Position numbers and translations under genes: made by a program. A DNA stretch of 64,000 bases from Muribaculaceae bacterium (GTDB lineage Bacteria > Bacteroidota > Bacteroidia > Bacteroidales > Muribaculaceae), in assembly GCA_017618355.1 (NCBI GenBank), contig JAFZUL010000146.1, positions 4,704 to 68,703 on the forward strand, given 5' to 3'. The notes under the pieces were generated by a model that saw only the letters and a program-made list of their open reading frames with translations, was not told the origin of the DNA and did not search any database. Below are positions 36,807 to 60,334 of the stretch, piece by piece (positions within the stretch are counted from its first letter, which is position 1; each line of letters begins with the position of its first letter).

Positions 36807-39257
36807 ATGCAAGAGATAATTCAAGAATCATCGCCTAGTAATAGCGAGAAGAAAAAAAGTTTCAATACGTCAATACCCATCAAAGCGTTCTTCAACGCCT
36901 GCCTGCACAACTGGTATTGGTTTGTAATATCAGCGATAATCTGCACCTGTTTGGCCTTGCTCAAGAGCAAGTCGGAACCTAAGCTATACAGTTCCAATGC
37001 CACTATCCTACTAACCACTGCAACAAGTAAGCAGGCTGGTAGTCAGGCGCAGGTGTTTGGAGATCTGGGATTGAATGTGGGAACCACCGACATAGCCAAT
37101 GAGACCCATAAACTTAAATCCACTAAACTCATGGAAACTGTCGTGGAGCATCTTGGCCTCAACATTCAGTATTACGGTAAAGTGTATCTGCGTGAGATAA
37201 ACACCTATAAGCACTCACCAGTGCAAATCACACCGATGCGCGAAGCAACGACTAATTATTCAATATCTATTGCCCCAAAGAGCGAGACGAAATTTGAGTT
37301 TGCCATCAATGGCAGCAAGAACTGGAAAGAGGCAGAATTTGGCAACACCGTAGCAACACCTTATGGCCCAATTGCTGTCACAAAGACAAGATTATTCAAC
37401 AAACAGTATGTGGGCTATACGGTGATTGCCAAGGTTTATACCATCAACAGTGCTGCCAAAAAATACATAGGTTCTTTGAAGGTGAGTATGGCTGATAAGA
37501 TGAGTGACGTGCTTAAACTCTCGCTCACCACAGACAATCACGAGCTTGGCATTGACATTCTTAACGCTCTTATCGTGGCTTATAACCAAGATGGCATAGA
37601 GGATAAGAACCGCGTGGCACGCAACACCGAGGACTTTATTGCAGAGCGCATCGCAGCCATATCCCAAGACCTTAGTGGCGTGGACAGCCGAATCGCACAA
37701 CTAAAGTCGGCAAGCGCCAACGCGTCAATGTATGCCGACGCTTCATCGGGTATGAGGTTCCAAGAGAACGCCTCCGATGCTAGCCTGCAACTTAGCCTAG
37801 CAACAAGCATGCAAGGATATATTAATGGTGCTGATGACAAATCTCTGTTGCCAAGCAATATTGGCATTGCCGATGCTGTTATTGAGAGTCAAATCAAGGC
37901 TTATAACGACAACATGCTCAAATATCAGAAGATTGCAGCCACAGCTACTGGCGAAAACCCCGTGATTGCCCAATTGCAAAGTGAAATGAGCGCTCAGAGG
38001 GAAAACATTCAAAATTCCATCAGCAAATACATTAACAAACTCAGTGCCAAAACCTCACAAGCCCAAGCTCAAGCCTCGACAGCTCAAGCTGGACGACTAG
38101 TAATGCCTGAGCATGAGAAGTCGATCATTGAGGTCACTCGTCAGCAGAATGTGAAGGAACAACTCTTCCTCTACCTGCTCAATAAGCGCGAGGAAAATGC
38201 CTTGCAAATTGCTATCACCGAGCCCAACGCTAAGGTCATTGAGCGCGCTTCGGGCAGCAGCGCGCCCATCTCTCCAAACACCAGTCGTTTCCTTGCCATT
38301 GGTCTTCTCATTGGATTGCTCATTCCTGCCGCAATCCTTTATCTGATTTACTGGATTCTCTCGCTTGACACCAAGATTCACTCTCGCCACGATGTAGAAG
38401 AGAATTGCAAGATTCCTATCGTGGGAGAGATTCCTAGCAAGCCCAACAATCAAAAAAATGAAGAGATTGTCATTACAGAGGACTCTGTGGACAGAGTTTC
38501 GGAGGCGCTGAGAATTGTTAGAGCAAATCTCGACTTTATTGCCGAAAGCAAAGACGGTGTAGGAACGGTTATGCAGTTCACTTCTACCCGACCGGGTGAG
38601 GGAAAGAGCTTTATCGCGCTGAACCTCGCTCTAACCTACGCCTACGTAAACAAGAAGGTTGCTGTGGTTGATCTCGACTTACGCAAGGGACGATTCTCTG
38701 AATATGCTAATGCCGAGACCAACATTGGCGTGAGCTCATTCCTCTCAGGAAAGACTACTAACGTCGATGACATTATTGTCAAGGGAAGCATCCACGAGAA
38801 CCTCGACATCGTGCCACTGGGAGCAATTCCGCCTAACCCCACCAGTCTGCTTATGAACAAGCATCTTGAGGAGCTTATCACCGCTCTGCGTTCGAGATAT
38901 GACTACATCATCCTTGATACAGTGCCATTTGGACTTATCGCCGACGCCACGCTTATCAACCGCTATGTTGATTTCACCGTTTATGTGATACGTGACGGCT
39001 TTATCGACAAGAAGTTCTTGCTCGACCTTGAGAAAGCCAGCGACGAAAAGAAACTCAAGAACCTATCTATCCTCATCAACGACATCAAGATTGACAAGAA
39101 GAACTATGGCTATGGAGGATATGGTTATGGATACGGATACGGCTATGGCTATGGAACCTATGGATATGGCTATGGTTATGGCTATGGCAACACTCCTAAA
39201 AAGAAGAAATTAAGCCTCAAGAATTTAAACTTGAATTTGAAGAAGAAAAAATCTTGA
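36807..39257 (+). CDS. wzc: Polysaccharide biosynthesis tyrosine autokinase (Wzc-like)
   Basis: Two TM helices, coiled periplasmic region, PGEGKS Walker A, DLDLR, IILDT, C-terminal YG cluster. Confidence 0.9.
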   Translation: MQEIIQESSPSNSEKKKSFNTSIPIKAFFNACLHNWYWFVISAIICTCLALLKSKSEPKLYSSNATILLTTATSKQAGSQAQVFGDLGLNVGTTDIANETHKLKSTKLMETVVEHLGLNIQYYGKVYLREINTYKHSPVQITPMREATTNYSISIAPKSETKFEFAINGSKNWKEAEFGNTVATPYGPIAVTKTRLFNKQYVGYTVIAKVYTINSAAKKYIGSLKVSMADKMSDVLKLSLTTDNHELGIDILNALIVAYNQDGIEDKNRVARNTEDFIAERIAAISQDLSGVDSRIAQLKSASANASMYADASSGMRFQENASDASLQLSLATSMQGYINGADDKSLLPSNIGIADAVIESQIKAYNDNMLKYQKIAATATGENPVIAQLQSEMSAQRENIQNSISKYINKLSAKTSQAQAQASTAQAGRLVMPEHEKSIIEVTRQQNVKEQLFLYLLNKREENALQIAITEPNAKVIERASGSSAPISPNTSRFLAIGLLIGLLIPAAILYLIYWILSLDTKIHSRHDVEENCKIPIVGEIPSKPNNQKNEEIVITEDSVDRVSEALRIVRANLDFIAESKDGVGTVMQFTSTRPGEGKSFIALNLALTYAYVNKKVAVVDLDLRKGRFSEYANAETNIGVSSFLSGKTTNVDDIIVKGSIHENLDIVPLGAIPPNPTSLLMNKHLEELITALRSRYDYIILDTVPFGLIADATLINRYVDFTVYVIRDGFIDKKFLLDLEKASDEKKLKNLSILINDIKIDKKNYGYGGYGYGYGYGYGYGTYGYGYGYGYGNTPKKKKLSLKNLNLNLKKKKS

Positions 39258-41346: not shown

Positions 41347-42381
41347 ATGACAATGATATTTAAGACCAAAAATATAATCTCGTTACTGCTCTTGGCTGTT
41401 GGAGTTTTCGCAGCTAACGCCCAAGACGGCACCACGGCCTACCAGTTCTTGAATGTGCCTGTATCGTCGCATGTTTACGCCCTGGGTGGGCATAACATTA
41501 CTATCATCGACGACGACATCAACCTCGTCGAGCAGAACCCCGCGCTTCTGGGCAAGGAGTTTGATCACCAGGTGGGACTGAACTATATGCGTTATATTGG
41601 CGGCACCAACTTCATGGGGGCACGCTATGGTCAGGGAGTGGGCGCGCATGGAGCGGCGGGAGCTGCAATTCAGTATTTTGGCTATGGCAAGATGAATTCC
41701 ACCGATGCCAGCGGAGCTATCCTTGGCGAGTTCAGCGCCAGCGACTTGGCGTTCACACTCACCTACTCTCACGACATCAGCGACCGCCTGCGTGGTGGTA
41801 TCAACCTCAAGTATGTCCACTCCAGTTACGAGACCTACTCGGCTGGTGCCATCGCCGTAGATTTAGGTGTCAACTACTACAACCCCGACAAAGACCTCTC
41901 TCTCTCGCTCGTGTTAAAGAACCTGGGAGGTCAGGTCAAGAAATTCAACGACACGCGCGACAAGCTGCCGTGGGACATCCAACTGGGTTTCAGCAAGGGG
42001 CTAGGCTCAACACCGTTCCGACTCTCGGTCACAGCCTATAACCTCACAAAATGGAAGCTCCCCTACTACGAGCCTGCCGACAAGAACAACACATCGAGCG
42101 ATTTGGTTGAGAGAGACAAGTTTGCCAGCAATCTCTTCCGCCACCTTGTTTTCGGCATCGAATACCTGCCATCGAGCAACATCTACATCGCCGCGGGCTA
42201 CAACTACAAGACACGCACCGACATGAGCACCTACAAGCGCAACTTCCTGTCGGGATTCTCCATTGGCGGAGGCATGAAAGTCAAAGCCTTCGGCTTCGGA
42301 GTTGCCTTTGCACAACCCCACACAGGCGCCACCACATTCATGGTAAACCTCACCACCTCGATTGGAGAGCTGATGAGATGA
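41347..42381 (+). CDS. porQ: Type IX secretion system protein PorQ
   Basis: YQFLNVPVSSHVYALGG, NPALL, KNLGGQ and FRHLVFG motifs; PorV/PorQ-type barrel. Confidence 0.85.
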   Translation: MTMIFKTKNIISLLLLAVGVFAANAQDGTTAYQFLNVPVSSHVYALGGHNITIIDDDINLVEQNPALLGKEFDHQVGLNYMRYIGGTNFMGARYGQGVGAHGAAGAAIQYFGYGKMNSTDASGAILGEFSASDLAFTLTYSHDISDRLRGGINLKYVHSSYETYSAGAIAVDLGVNYYNPDKDLSLSLVLKNLGGQVKKFNDTRDKLPWDIQLGFSKGLGSTPFRLSVTAYNLTKWKLPYYEPADKNNTSSDLVERDKFASNLFRHLVFGIEYLPSSNIYIAAGYNYKTRTDMSTYKRNFLSGFSIGGGMKVKAFGFGVAFAQPHTGATTFMVNLTTSIGELMR

Positions 42382-42613
42382 TTTATTAAAATGCAGAATG
42401 CATAATTGGGCTACGCTTTAATTCACCCCCACACAGAAATTAGACAGAAGAACATAAGCCTTCACAAGAACATAATTTTGTTTTAAACGACCTTAATTAC
42501 CAAAAGAGCGCAAAAAAGTAGCGTGGGGGAATTGTCCTTAATCCCCCCACGCGTAGTGTTCCCTAATTACTAATCGTTGCGTAGCACCAACTAATCTCTT
42601 TAACCGAGATCGG

Positions 42614-43101: not shown

Positions 43102-43222
43102 GTTAGTTATTAGTTTTTAGTTATTAGTTATTAGTTTATCAAATGCTCTGTTTATAGTGGTTGTAGTGCATCAAATCCCACCACGGTATTCGATAAACGA
43201 TAAACCATAAACGATAAACGAA
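43102..43222. repeat. Heptamer arrays (TTAGTTA and AACGATA) with no gene between them
   Basis: gttagttattagtttttagttattagttattagtttatc ... cgataaacgataaaccataaacgataaacg. Confidence 0.75.
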
Positions 43223-45967: not shown

Positions 45968-46020
45968 GATAGTTATTACATGATAGTTATTAGTTAATAG
46001 TTTATAGTTCTTAGTTTTTA

Positions 46021-46044
46021 GTAGGGACGAGACCTGTCTCGTCC
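46021..46044 (+). repeat. GTAG-type REP-like palindrome
   Basis: GTAG-GGACGAGAC-CT-GTCTCGTCC, flanked by heptamer arrays. Confidence 0.6.
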
Positions 46045-46478: not shown

Positions 46479-47459
46479 TTATTTCGAGAGACGCGATATT
46501 GTGTCAAGCAATTCGCGGTCGATAGACTTCTCGTATTTGATGGCTTTACTGAAAGGCACATAAACCATTTTTTCGTCATCGTCGCCAATCATCACGTTGC
46601 GCTGACCTTCGACAAGAGCGTTGACGGCAGCAGCACCCATACACGATGCGAGAATGCGGTCTTGTGCTGTGGGTGAACCACCACGCTGCAAGTGACCAAG
46701 AATAGTCACACGCACGTCATACTGAGGAAACTCTTTTCGCACGCGTTCAGCAAGCTGCATCGCTCCGCCAGTGACAGGGTTCTCGGCAACAAGCACTATC
46801 GACGACTTCTTGGTGGTGCGGAATCCGTGCTCGATGAGTTTCGCAAGCTGGTCCCCCTCTATAGCAAGTTCGGGGATAATGGCAGCCTCGGCTCCACCGG
46901 CAATGGCGCCATAAAGTGCGAGGAAGCTGGCTTCACGACCCATCACCTCGATGAAGAACAAGCGTTCGTGGCTGTTGGCGGTGTCGCGTATGCGATCCAC
47001 GCACCACATGATGGTGTTGAGAGCTGTGTCATAACCGATGGTGTGGTCGGTGCCGTAAAGGTCGTTGTCGATGGTACCTGGAATGCCCACGATGGGCACG
47101 TCAAACTCACTGGCAAACTGCTTAGCTCCTGTGAGAGTGCCATCGCCACCAATCACTATCAACGCGTCAATGCCATGCTTGCGCATGTTATCGTAAGCCT
47201 TCTGGCGACCTTCGGGGGTCATAAACTCCTTGCACCGTGCGGTGCGCAGGATAGTTCCGCCACGATGAATGATATTCGACACATCCTCGGCATGGAAATC
47301 GACAATCTCATCCTCAACTAGACCGCGATAACCACGATAGATGCCTTTCACGTTAAATTTGTTGTAAATTGCAGCGCGTGTCACCGCCCTGATAGCGGCA
47401 TTCATGCCAGGAGAATCCCCTCCCGAAGTCAACACGCCAATTGTCTTAATCTTTGCCAT
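46479..47459 (-). CDS. pfkA: ATP-dependent 6-phosphofructokinase
   Basis: [27 protein letters not shown] and GHLQRGG motifs; start corrected to MAKIK. Confidence 0.97.
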
Positions 47460-47466
47460 TTTTTCT

Positions 47467-47991
47467 AAAATGCATAATTCATAATGCACAATGCACAATC
47501 TCGAATGCGAAATGCAAAATGAATGGTTAATTATTTTTGTTTGTTATTCTCAAAGGTGGTTTTTACTATTGCCATGAGAATTCTTATTAACTCACGACAG
47601 TCGGCAAGCATTTCTTCGCCTTCGTCAAAAGGGATATACTCACTTTCTTGCATTAATTCAAGCCAATACTCTGTCTCGCTAGCTTCCTTTAAAGAAATAT
47701 TCATCTTCATACCAAAGTCAGCATCACTTTGACCTCTAATAGCTTCTTTCACATTTGCACCTATGCTTGTGGCAGAACGCAAAAACTGTTTAGACAACAC
47801 ATATTCGTGCTCTTCTTCAATCATATAACGATAAAGCTTTATCGAGCGCAAAGCAAAAGTTTTGCTCTTCATTACAATAATATTATCATTATCTTTTTTC
47901 ATTTTTTATTCATTCACGATTAAAGAATTAAACATTGTCCATTATTCATTATTTGTGCATTGTGCATTGTGCATTACGCATTGTGCATTTA
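47467..47991. mobile_element. Putative single-gene cassette: four-helix-bundle gene with inverted ATGCACA heptamer arms
   Basis: Left arm aatgcataattcataatgcacaatgcacaat (from 47469); right arm ttgtgcattgtgcattgtgcattacgcattgtgcattt (47953-47990); AT-rich ORF between; mobility is inferred. Confidence 0.5.
47531..47902 (-). CDS. Four helix bundle protein (23S rRNA IVP/TIGR02436 family)
   Basis: [43 protein letters not shown]. Confidence 0.93.
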
Positions 47992-48715
47992 TGCCAGTGT
48001 AGATTGAGCAGGTGCCAAAGGTCATGCGTTTCACTTTGCAGTTTTTGAAGCCTGCTTGCCGCATTATGGCGAGCATGTCATCGCCTTGGGGCACGGCGGC
48101 GATGCTCTGAGGCAGGTAGCGGTAAGCGCTCTTGTCGTGCGACTTCAACGCACCAAACCACGGGATTATGTGCAAAGTGTAGAGGTCGTAGAACCACCGC
48201 ACCACACGGTTGCGAGGCGTGGAAAGCTCTATCACGCAGAGCATTCCTCCTGGCGCTAGCACACGGCACATCTGCTCATAGCCTTGCTGCAGATGTTCGA
48301 AGTTACGCACGCCAAAAGCCACTGTAACCGCGTCAAACTCGCCGTCCTTGAATGGCAGAGCCAGACAGTCGCCCTGCTGCACGGTTATGGCATTGCCAAG
48401 TCCGCGCTTTGCAATCTTTTTGCGTGCCACGTCGAGCATTCCCTGTGACAGGTCGATGCCCACCACAACCTCTGGTTTCATCTTGTTATAAAGCCCAATA
48501 GCAAAGTCGCCAGTGCCTGTCGCCACGTCGAGAATGCGGCGCGGATGACACTTGCTCACCATTTTCACCGCCACGCGCCGCCACCACCGATCGATGCCCA
48601 GCGTCATGGCACGGTTCATGAAGTCGTAGGCAGGAGCAATGCTGTCAAACATCTCCTCCACCTGCCGGGCCTTCTCCCCCTCACTGCTATATGGCTTTAT
48701 CTCCTCAACCTTCAT
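47942..48715 (-). CDS. menG: Demethylmenaquinone methyltransferase UbiE/MenG
   Basis: MFDSIAPAYDFMN, LDVATGTGD, AFGVRNF and AYRYLP motifs; last ~15 aa are encoded by the heptamer array. Confidence 0.94.
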   Translation of the reverse strand: MKVEEIKPYSSEGEKARQVEEMFDSIAPAYDFMNRAMTLGIDRWWRRVAVKMVSKCHPRRILDVATGTGDFAIGLYNKMKPEVVVGIDLSQGMLDVARKKIAKRGLGNAITVQQGDCLALPFKDGEFDAVTVAFGVRNFEHLQQGYEQMCRVLAPGGMLCVIELSTPRNRVVRWFYDLYTLHIIPWFGALKSHDKSAYRYLPQSIAAVPQGDDMLAIMRQAGFKNCKVKRMTFGTCSIYTGINAQCVMHNAQCTNNE

Positions 48716-48733
48716 CTGTTCTTTTTTACCTAA

Positions 48734-49233
48734 TTAGACATAAGAACATAAGTTTTTACATAAGTTACATAATATAATAATTATTGTCAATCTTGTGTAA
48801 ATTATTCTTTTGGTCTATATACGCGATACTTTCGCCTAATCTGTATCTTATTTTCATTGCCAAAGTTTATCAGCAATCCGTTATCAATGCCTGTTGCAGT
48901 TAAATAGTTAACCAATTGTGCTTGATGCGCCTCATTGATATTTTGCACAGCTTTCAACTCTATTATGACACAGTTTTCAACAAAGATATCAGCAATAAAC
49001 TCACCAACCACTTTATCATCATATTTTACTATAATGGATGATTGTTGCTTTGCGCTAATCCCTGCTTTTGAAAGTTCAATCATCAACGCATTCTCATATA
49101 CTTTTTCGGTATATCCTGGTGACAGAGCCTTTCTTACAATATTAGCGCAATCTAATATATCACTTATTAAATTCTCAATATCCATAAAAAATTTATTTCT
49201 GTTCTTATGAAAATTTTATGTTCTTATGTCTAA
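48734..49233. mobile_element. Putative single-gene cassette: GxxExxY gene with perfect 18-bp terminal inverted repeats
   Basis: TTAGACATAAGAACATAA (48734-48751) and TTATGTTCTTATGTCTAA (49216-49233); mobility is inferred. Confidence 0.55.
48802..49185 (-). CDS. GxxExxY protein (PD-(D/E)xK nuclease-like)
   Basis: PGYTEKVY, ADIFVE..IIELKAV, QLVNYL and GLLINFG motifs. Confidence 0.93.
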   Translation of the reverse strand: MDIENLISDILDCANIVRKALSPGYTEKVYENALMIELSKAGISAKQQSSIIVKYDDKVVGEFIADIFVENCVIIELKAVQNINEAHQAQLVNYLTATGIDNGLLINFGNENKIQIRRKYRVYRPKE

Positions 49234-49240
49234 AAAAACA

Positions 49241-49323
49241 GCGGGCGCAGCCATTTAATATCTTTTGTTCTTTTGTCTAAAAAAGCGGGCGCAGCCATTT
49301 GATATCTTTTGTTCTTTTGTCTA
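49241..49323. repeat. 39-bp direct repeat x2 (44-bp period) containing TIR-like unit and GGC-GCA-GCC hairpin
   Basis: gcgggcgcagccattt(a/g)atatcttttgttcttttgtcta at 49241-49279 and 49285-49323. Confidence 0.9.
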
Positions 49324-49328
49324 TTAAG

Positions 49329-50285
49329 TCATTCATTCTGCATTGAGAGAAGCACATCGTGCCTCTCATAAGCTTCGACTATGCGTTGCACGAGTTGGTG
49401 GCGCACGATGTCTTTCTTGCCGAACTCAATTTTGCCGATGCCTTTCACTCCTTCGAGCACTTTGAGGGCTTGAATAAGTCCTGAAGTCACGCTGCGAGGG
49501 AGGTCAATCTGCGTGGTGTCGCCTGTTACTACCATCTTCGAGCCCATTCCCAAGCGGGTGAGGAACATCTTAATCTGGTGAGTGGTGGTGTTCTGCGCCT
49601 CGTCGAGGACAATTATGGCGTCGTTGAGAGTGCGGCCGCGCATAAAGGCGAGCGGGGCAATCTGTATGACGTTGGTGTCCATATATTCCTTGAGCTTGGC
49701 GCCGGGAATCATATCCTCGAGAGCGTCGTATAGCGGCTGCAAATAAGGGTCAATCTTATCGCGCATATCGCCAGGGAGGAAGCCTAGTTTCTCACCTGCC
49801 TCAACTGCTGGTCGCGACAGGATAATCTTGCGTGCCTCACGGTTCTTCAGAGCACGCACGGCTAGCGCCACAGCTAGGTAGGTCTTACCAGTTCCAGCAG
49901 GACCAAGAGCAAAGGTCAGGTCATTCTCGTTGAAGGTCTTGACCATAAGCTGCTGGTTGGGTGTGCGACCCTTGATGGGCTTGCCGTTCACTCCATAGAT
50001 TATCACGTCGTCCATCTTAAGCTCCTTGGGAGGCAAGCCTTTGATGGTGTCGAGGATAACATCCTCGGGCAAAGTGTTGTAAGTAGCGCAATATTCCTCG
50101 AGCTGCTTGATGTTCTGCTCAAACTTCTCGGTCTCGGCCTCATCGCCAATAACGGTGATTACCGAGCCTCGAGCCGCCATACGCAGCTTTGGAAACAAAT
50201 TACGGATAAGTTGAATATTACTGTTGTTCACCCCGTAAAACACCACAGGGTCAACGTTGTCAATTATTACGTGTCGTTCTATCAT
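49329..50285 (-). CDS. phoH: PhoH family ATPase
   Basis: GPAGTGKT, RPAVEAGE.LGFLPG, MRGRTL and DEAQN motifs. Confidence 0.95.
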   Translation of the reverse strand: MIERHVIIDNVDPVVFYGVNNSNIQLIRNLFPKLRMAARGSVITVIGDEAETEKFEQNIKQLEEYCATYNTLPEDVILDTIKGLPPKELKMDDVIIYGVNGKPIKGRTPNQQLMVKTFNENDLTFALGPAGTGKTYLAVALAVRALKNREARKIILSRPAVEAGEKLGFLPGDMRDKIDPYLQPLYDALEDMIPGAKLKEYMDTNVIQIAPLAFMRGRTLNDAIIVLDEAQNTTTHQIKMFLTRLGMGSKMVVTGDTTQIDLPRSVTSGLIQALKVLEGVKGIGKIEFGKKDIVRHQLVQRIVEAYERHDVLLSMQNE

Positions 50286-54435: not shown

Positions 54436-54570
54436 GAACTAGTTCATAGTTCACAGTTAAGAGTTCATAGTTGCTACTGAAACAACGTAACACACCCGAG
54501 TCGTTTAGTTTACGGCTCGAGTGTGTTTTTGTCTTCAATAACAAATAAGGGAGTTGTCCTTAATTGTCTT

Positions 54571-55821: not shown

Positions 55822-55991
55822 AAATTGTTTCTCTCTCCCATCTCCGCAACCACTCAAAAAAGAGCAGTTGCGGAACATGAGATTGAAATAAGTTGTTTTA
55901 TAGAAACTTTGTATATGTTTTTAGTTGTCAGTTATTAGTTATTAGTTTTCCTAGAAACTCTAAACACTAACCTCTGAACTGCGCTAAGCGC

Positions 55992-60228: not shown

Positions 60229-60334
60229 AATAGTAGAGCAGTGAAATAGTAGAGCAGTGAAATAGTGAAACTGTTCAACTTACTATTCATTTTCCCCACT
60301 TAACTATTCTACTACTTTACTACTCTACTACTTA
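60229..60334. repeat. Inverted 8-mer arrays with no intervening gene
   Basis: (AATAGTAGAGCAGTGA)x2 + AATAGTGA, then ACTATTCT ACTACTTT ACTACTCT ACTACTTA. Confidence 0.8.

Follow-up and report, generated by a model that had tools for sequence, protein, structure and literature searches.

What are two unrelated single genes, each framed by its own inverted repeats, doing at consecutive junctions of phoH, menG and pfkA? The question is raised by the minus strand of the window (the whole stretch of 64,000 nucleotides analyzed here), along which the order is phoH, GxxExxY, menG, 4HB (four-helix bundle) and pfkA. In window positions, the features are as follows.

49329..50285, minus strand: phoH (PF02562), host gene upstream of the GxxExxY cassette (cassette 1)
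49195..49328, minus strand: GxxExxY upstream arm, GACATAAGAACATAAG words with an 8-nt period plus a 44-nt duplication (49235-49322)
48802..49185, minus strand: GxxExxY gene, 127 aa (TIGR04256, PF13366)
48730..48768, minus strand: GxxExxY downstream (inverted) arm, ending ~15 nt short of the menG start
47942..48715, minus strand: menG/ubiE, 257 aa, its last 16 codons being the translated upstream arm of cassette 2
47941..47990, minus strand: 4HB upstream arm, an AATGCAC/T heptamer array
47531..47902, minus strand: 4HB gene (cassette 2), 123 aa (PF05635/TIGR02436; close to PDB 2RLD)
47468..47527, minus strand: 4HB downstream (inverted) heptamer arm, ending 8 nt short of the pfkA ATG
46479..47459, minus strand: pfkA (TIGR02482), host gene downstream of cassette 2, start set from relatives

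These coordinates and the arm pairs confirm what a first-pass annotation had read from the letters, namely two one-gene inserts with inverted arms at consecutive phoH-menG-pfkA junctions. The 4HB arms pair over 32 nt with 91% complementarity (47468-47499/47959-47990) and the GxxExxY arms over 24 nt with 92% (48734-48757/49210-49233). The annotation was also right that the inserts are AT-richer than their neighbors (33.6% and 34.7% GC against 51-56%) and that they come with no transposase or integrase, none being found from phoH to pfkA among the window's ORFs and profile matches. Its description of the arms as inverted stands for both cassettes, as does the 7-mer of the 4HB arms; the ~9-mer given for GxxExxY does not, the period there being 8 nt (GACATAAG-AACATAAG). 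In both cassettes, the arms span the interval from the upstream stop to 8-15 nt short of the downstream start. The menG stop, which normally lies within the first arm unit, is lost in this genome, and the 4HB upstream arm is therefore translated: positions 47942-47990 encode a 16-residue C-terminal extension of MenG. In several relatives, menG ends with one AATGCATAA unit, perhaps a target site, perhaps a relic.

Ranked by a flank inverted-repeat score, the window's two genes stand 3rd and 6th among the genome's 2205 ORFs. A profile search finds 7 TIGR02436 and 3 TIGR04256 matches in this genome, and the flank survey that the annotation had called for shows inverted arms, by eye, at nine of these ten genes, with a word that differs from gene to gene; only a long 4HB with a suffix lacks arms. 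Eight of the nine scorable genes fall within the top 38 of the 2205 ORFs. Other family members are armed as well. Periodic inverted arms surround 4HB genes at 52 of 58 loci in the genus and at 50 of 56 distinct metagenome loci (some of these 56 rows are near-duplicates), always with a period of 7, compared with only 1 of 500 sampled control ORFs. GxxExxY arms are less regular, and 10 of 30 genus loci pass the periodic test. An inverted-repeat score of at least 27 is reached by 27 of 30 GxxExxY loci in the genus, by 17 of 29 order-wide (12 of 29 fall under this threshold), and by 11 of 500 controls.

The 4HB protein scores 101.7 bits against TIGR02436 (cut-off 24) and 91.5 against PF05635 (cut-off 33.8). 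It matches PDB 2RLD, an entry of five chains, with an E value of 5e-33, and 2GSC weakly. Members of PF05635 are described as homopentameric (PMC4990558) and as resembling the DGR protein Avd (PMC10053308). The 4HB protein has no nuclease domain and no known catalytic center. GxxExxY scores 132 bits against TIGR04256 (cut-off 35), and residues G24, E27, Y30, D66, E76, K78, Q90 and Y94 are invariant in 28 sequences. The best fold matches of its model (pLDDT 93) are Cas4 and lambda exonuclease (E 2e-4, TM 0.59), and because this fold is of the Cas4/lambda-exonuclease-like PD-(D/E)xK type, GxxExxY is predicted to be a nuclease. Both proteins are under purifying selection, with dN of 0.03-0.06 and dS of 0.2-1.2. 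A single-protein query, which has low sensitivity, found no viral copy of 4HB.

Within each family, the word carried by the arms goes with the clade of the protein. AATGCAY characterizes a single 19-row clade (support 91/87) in a tree of 59 4HB proteins, and this clade occupies at least six junctions: menG-pfkA, peptidase M24-hexapeptide, both sides of cysS, and two more. Other 4HB clades have other words, and the word drifts within the folD clade. Arms of the GACATAAG type recur in the window's GxxExxY clade at phoH-menG, at sufB-sufC, at a mur-ligase junction and at others, and a more distant GxxExxY clade has 9-mer arms. The sufB-sufC junction holds 4HB in one genome and GxxExxY in six. Genomes G143 and G228 share a near-identical cassette but have only 1-2 matches to the word, so the arms arrived with the gene. 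Gene and arms travel as a unit to different junctions.

The phoH-menG-pfkA alignment that the annotation had suggested, run on the 22 closest loci (L041-L062), shows mostly empty junctions. Every relative is represented by a metagenome assembly, where contigs break at repeats. At menG-pfkA, the window's 4HB is present in 1 of 20 scorable loci. Another holds a different GxxExxY (29% identical) with different arms, hairpin arrays for which contig C16 of the window's genome has a matching copy. Two have AATGCAY arms enclosing 100-150 nt and no gene, with no trace of a decayed 4HB gene between the arms in either relative, and 16 have a plain spacer of 18-110 nt. At phoH-menG, the window's GxxExxY is found in 4 of 19 loci, two of the four being duplicates within one assembly. 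Neither vertical fixation of both genes at these sites nor a lack of inverted arms in other family members is seen. Many of the "empty" junctions are filled by 9-nt-period CTAGA arrays (phoH-menG spacers of L043-L055; G000:C90:14835-14928), a repeat family for which no cognate gene was found.

Comparison of filled and empty junctions shows that a cassette replaces the old spacer and does not split it; sometimes the last codons of the upstream gene are replaced too. There is no consistent target-site duplication, only direct matches of 4-5 nt, one of which (ATGAA) is suggestive. At 4HB loci, a same-strand open frame of at least 80 codons ends near the upstream arm in 56 of 58 cases from the genus and in 51 of 56 from metagenomes; the distance from its stop to the beginning of the arm is no more than 12 nt in 45 of 51. 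The cassette genes therefore appear to rely on host transcription. A sigma-70 promoter and terminator scan, of a kind unsuited to Bacteroidota promoters, stayed at chance level. At two convergent junctions, relatives have 4HB genes in either orientation with arm polarity unchanged.

The clearest sign of recent movement comes from the window's own 4HB cassette. Compared with genome G152, 18% of synonymous sites differ in the cassette against 52-55% in the flanks, and dS is 0.20 for 4HB against 0.85-1.15 for phoH, menG and pfkA. Mismatch between the two is 4-8% over the cassette and mostly 15-24% beside it, a difference too large for assembly collapse; pairs with 2-3 differences are less safe. 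The nearest host kin by dS (G120, ~0.55-0.65) has no 4HB and has kept the old spacer. On the menG side, the window agrees with G120 right to the cassette edge, and on the pfkA side the sharing with G152 reaches at most ~65 nt. Among 97 same-junction 4HB pairs, cassettes mostly diverge as fast as their flanks or faster. In five pairs, at five junctions, the cassette pS is less than half that of both flanks, and identity stops ~10-65 nt outside the arms. The cleanest pair (L137/L138) differs at 3 of ~480 cassette bases, with identity ending ~22 and ~37 nt outside. To judge from such sequence comparisons, this looks like homing-like spacer replacement of 4HB cassettes, likely at the DNA level. 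The same test gives no lateral signal in 37 same-junction GxxExxY pairs, and the window's GxxExxY diverges at the pace of its flanks.

Two metagenome sets (L257-L284 and L240-L259), in which the cassette is invariant but the DNA upstream of it highly divergent, were considered as further sweeps and rejected. The first consists of many gut metagenome contigs in which a 4HB cassette lies between the mod and res genes of a type III restriction system, with almost no variation over the 300 nt that adjoin the cassette. The target-recognition regions of mod are hypervariable. The second set has, by eye, the same type of flank sequence.

Arms also occur without genes. The window's genome contains 332 heptamer arrays of score at least 10, only 14 of which lie within long ORFs. 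For cassette-derived words, arms of the upstream type are nearer a stop in 54 of 56 cases and arms of the downstream type nearer a start in 69 of 89, a polarity that would be expected if each lone arm is one half of an inverted pair. Pairs of arms without a gene are frequent, as are mixed stacks, and single arms persist at many junctions. Across 133 genus genomes, AATGCAY arrays of at least 10 matches are found in 15 of the 18 that have the clade of this word and in 12 of the 115 that lack it; the corresponding counts for GACA-type words are 15 of 20 and 8 of 113. Kinship confounds this co-occurrence, AATGCAY arrays being present in 21 of 22 genomes of the window's subclade. The cognate word is favored in 8 of 10 genomes with 4HB only and in 7 of 12 with GxxExxY only; in 3 of those 12, the other family's repeat dominates.

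Several gene-less arrays can be seen in the window itself. Arrays of 7- or 8-mers lie at gene ends or starts at 43103-43136, 43191-43221, 45984-46022, 54440-54472, 55923-55947 and 60303-60332. The one at 43191-43221 is the upstream-arm word of a 4HB cassette on contig C113, and the one at 60303-60332 resembles the 8-mer of a cassette on C15. Past the stop of a plus-strand gene that ends at 42381, the spacer at 42385-42480 carries an AATGCAG arm and then a GACAGAAGAACATAAG word, so that gene-less arms of both of the window's cassette types are stacked there. Arms of the hairpin-array type of the C16 GxxExxY occur in at least 12 places (among them G000:C165:3245-4098, C66:3712-4110, C100, C131 and C61). 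They form gene-less pairs, are nested among other repeats, or flank a small lipoprotein-like gene on either side. The 6-nt-period arrays (TATGGA/TATGGC) at 39120-39188 are probably coding repeats.

We therefore have two unrelated small genes with clade-specific inverted arms that are gained, lost and swapped at gene junctions. The first-pass annotation had taken them for minimal mobile cassettes. Empty junctions, armed family members, the same gene and arms at several junctions, and a recent lateral copy all support that view, and the mobility of these repeat-armed one-gene cassettes is well supported: that gene and arms form mobile units is, in our judgment, very probable. How they move is a separate matter. 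The mechanism we favor, with about even confidence, is a protein-assisted replacement of spacers at the DNA level. The cassette would spread as selfish DNA by replacing the stop-to-start spacer at the same junction in related species, a step that would need only tens of bases of flanking match. It would have no promoter of its own and be carried by host transcription. The arms would fold in single-stranded or cruciform DNA and be bound by the cognate protein; GxxExxY might nick or resect at the folded arms, and the noncatalytic 4HB pentamer might hold them and make use of the host's repair enzymes. New junctions would be founded by rare ectopic events, and the intergenic repeat arrays would be what remains once the gene or one arm is lost. 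Counting against this scheme, it is the 4HB, which has no known catalytic center, that gives the lateral signal, whereas the predicted nuclease GxxExxY gives none.

Alternatively, the cassettes could be passive accessory genes of benefit to the host, for instance in defense, that are moved by ordinary homologous recombination and selection, with the repeats serving as handles or drifting along. The host genes are indeed mosaic, the pfkA tree disagreeing with those of menG and phoH, and because host genes recombine between species in this way, ordinary recombination plus selection could move cassettes too. Strong purifying selection, the lack of any recent lateral GxxExxY pair, and the excess of same-junction over different-junction cases among recent 4HB pairs (105 against 2, most of the 105 coming from a few redundant sets) all fit such passive genes. 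They would not account for an arm word that tracks the protein across junctions and genera. Moreover, the flanks shared by L137 and L138 are so short that trimming by back-crossing in the time available seems unlikely, and the cassette genes match no PADLOC defense family, giving only faint Cas4 and PDC hits. We consider this explanation unlikely.

The first-pass annotation had offered, beside pairing in ssDNA, a reading at the RNA level, in which the arms pair in the polycistronic mRNA and loop out the ORF like an intervening sequence, keeping the operon functional; RNase III would then cut the cassette out as in 23S rRNA intervening sequences (IVSs). Folding the transcript shows that the arms are able to pair (an unbroken helix of 22 bp is predicted, with whole-fold z scores of -2.9 and -1.7), the host has RNase III (rnc), and arrays lie mostly after stops and before starts. 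In Coxiella, an IVS with a gene of the same family behind tandem heptamers is described as being cut by RNase III (PMC4990558). Yet looping out as the purpose of the arms finds no support. The inserts lie between genes and interrupt none, so nothing needs restoring by excision, and RNase III excision is described as leaving fragments (PMC4990558). Sense-strand arm mismatches (63 G-T against 106 A-C, in related rows and with a possible contribution of strand composition) reveal no G-U excess, in this genome the upstream 4HB arm is read as part of MenG, and lone arms are common. Excision would also leave the clade-specific words and the lateral copying unexplained. Two bovine-gut RNA runs contained 5% of the words, as 151-nt contigs only, too thin a representation to judge expression or cleavage. 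We regard excision as the arms' purpose as improbable.

It is equally hard to credit a route through RNA, in which the 4HB pentamer, being Avd-like, would bind its own transcript and enlist a reverse transcriptase (RT) encoded elsewhere, the cDNA integrating by short homology as in DGR retrohoming: PF05635 is Avd-like (PMC10053308), DGR cDNA is reported to integrate with 8-19 bp of identity (PMC3240598) and shared flanks are short here too, and an RT is present in 13 of 18 AATGCAY-clade genomes against 64 of 133 overall, but no RT gene lies from phoH to pfkA, both RT genes of the genome sit on different contigs and match mixed defense-type and intron families below cut-off, 15 close pairs show no adenine bias (84 fourfold-site changes involve A and 85 T), and GxxExxY cassettes have the same design with no link to Avd. 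The cassettes thus differ from DGRs both in having no adjacent RT and in showing no adenine-specific mutagenesis.

DNA-level spacer replacement, the mechanism we prefer, has partial counterparts in several known systems. The layout is that of RAYT/REPIN and Ssn/SRM systems, the same-site spread, as far as it is seen for 4HB, resembles that of homing endonucleases, and 4HB with heptamers is found in 23S IVSs; the cassettes depart from each in a defining trait. Insertion sequences and MITEs differ in that the cassettes have neither a transposase nor a consistent target-site duplication, and replace the spacer without splitting it. Ssn nucleases are described as small single-domain nuclease genes with their own flanking repeats (NTS/SRM), many dispersed copies, and co-varying nuclease-repeat pairs (PMC11893778), all of which the cassettes resemble. 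Ssn, however, is a GIY-YIG nuclease, whereas GxxExxY is a predicted PD-(D/E)xK nuclease and 4HB is no nuclease, and SRMs are described as hairpins of 20-50 nt, not as tandem arms enclosing a gene (PMC11893778). The free-standing homing endonucleases of phage T4 are promoterless single genes between conserved genes that spread at the same site in relatives by gene conversion (PMC2988022), as the cassettes may do. They cut hundreds to thousands of bases away, and the account in PMC2988022 describes no repeat arms; here flanks are shared over tens of bases, and 4HB, which moves most clearly, lacks a nuclease domain.

The ORF-bearing IVSs of 23S rRNA in Coxiella and Leptospira share the most detail with cassette 2. 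They are described as a PF05635 gene that is bounded by terminal inverted repeats and preceded by tandem heptamers, and as patchy and horizontally acquired (PMC4990558); their terminal repeats, like the arms, are able to form a long stem. Here, however, the unit sits between the protein genes menG and pfkA and not in rRNA, its ORF is under purifying selection, many junctions are occupied, and gene-less copies of the arms are scattered genome-wide. An Rfam search gave no match near the gathering score and one chance hit. We offer, tentatively, a broader possibility: 4HB and GxxExxY genes may be the engines of transposase-free mobile elements, each reading its own arm word, using tens of bases of homology to copy its cassette into the same junction of another species, and seeding intergenic 7-10-mer arrays. 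On this view, the ORF-bearing 23S rRNA IVSs might stem from copies that ended up in rRNA, and DGR Avd might be an offshoot that became domesticated.

A full-text search, with subscription journals and supplements outside its reach, returned no paper linking PF05635 or PF13366 genes to flanking repeat arms, and the association is apparently unpublished. First, it gives these two large families of unknown function a testable substrate, the flanking repeat word. Second, if short-flank replacement is protein-driven, a protein of 120 residues would steer the insertion of genes to specific sites with no transposase involved, which, if true, would be relevant both to mobile-DNA biology and to genome engineering. 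Finally, it suggests how intergenic heptamer repeats might have come to be in excess and to show their stop/start polarity. In Xanthomonas and Nostoc, such repeats are described as sense-strand arrays after stops and in the opposite orientation before starts, often as inverted pairs, as they are here, and their origin is left unexplained (PMC4692102). That account treats them as quadruplex-forming and links them to no gene family, whereas the arrays here are mostly not G-rich.

REPIN/RAYT systems combine a low-copy gene in inverted repeats with cognate copies scattered between genes, often as gene-less pairs (bioRxiv 2021.07.10.451892; RAREFAN), and the cassettes share this arrangement. They differ in having no HUH/Y1 transposase and in arms that are tandem 7-10-mers rather than palindromes. 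In addition, RAYTs are described as non-jumping and vertically inherited in these sources, whereas cassette genes change junction and move laterally. The genome's single Y1 transposase gene (Y1_Tnp, IS200/RAYT-like; L184, G000:C96:13434-14180) lies beside a tRNA-like sequence, between 120-nt inverted repeats that have only two partial copies elsewhere. It is not an obvious helper, its repeats being unrelated to the arms.
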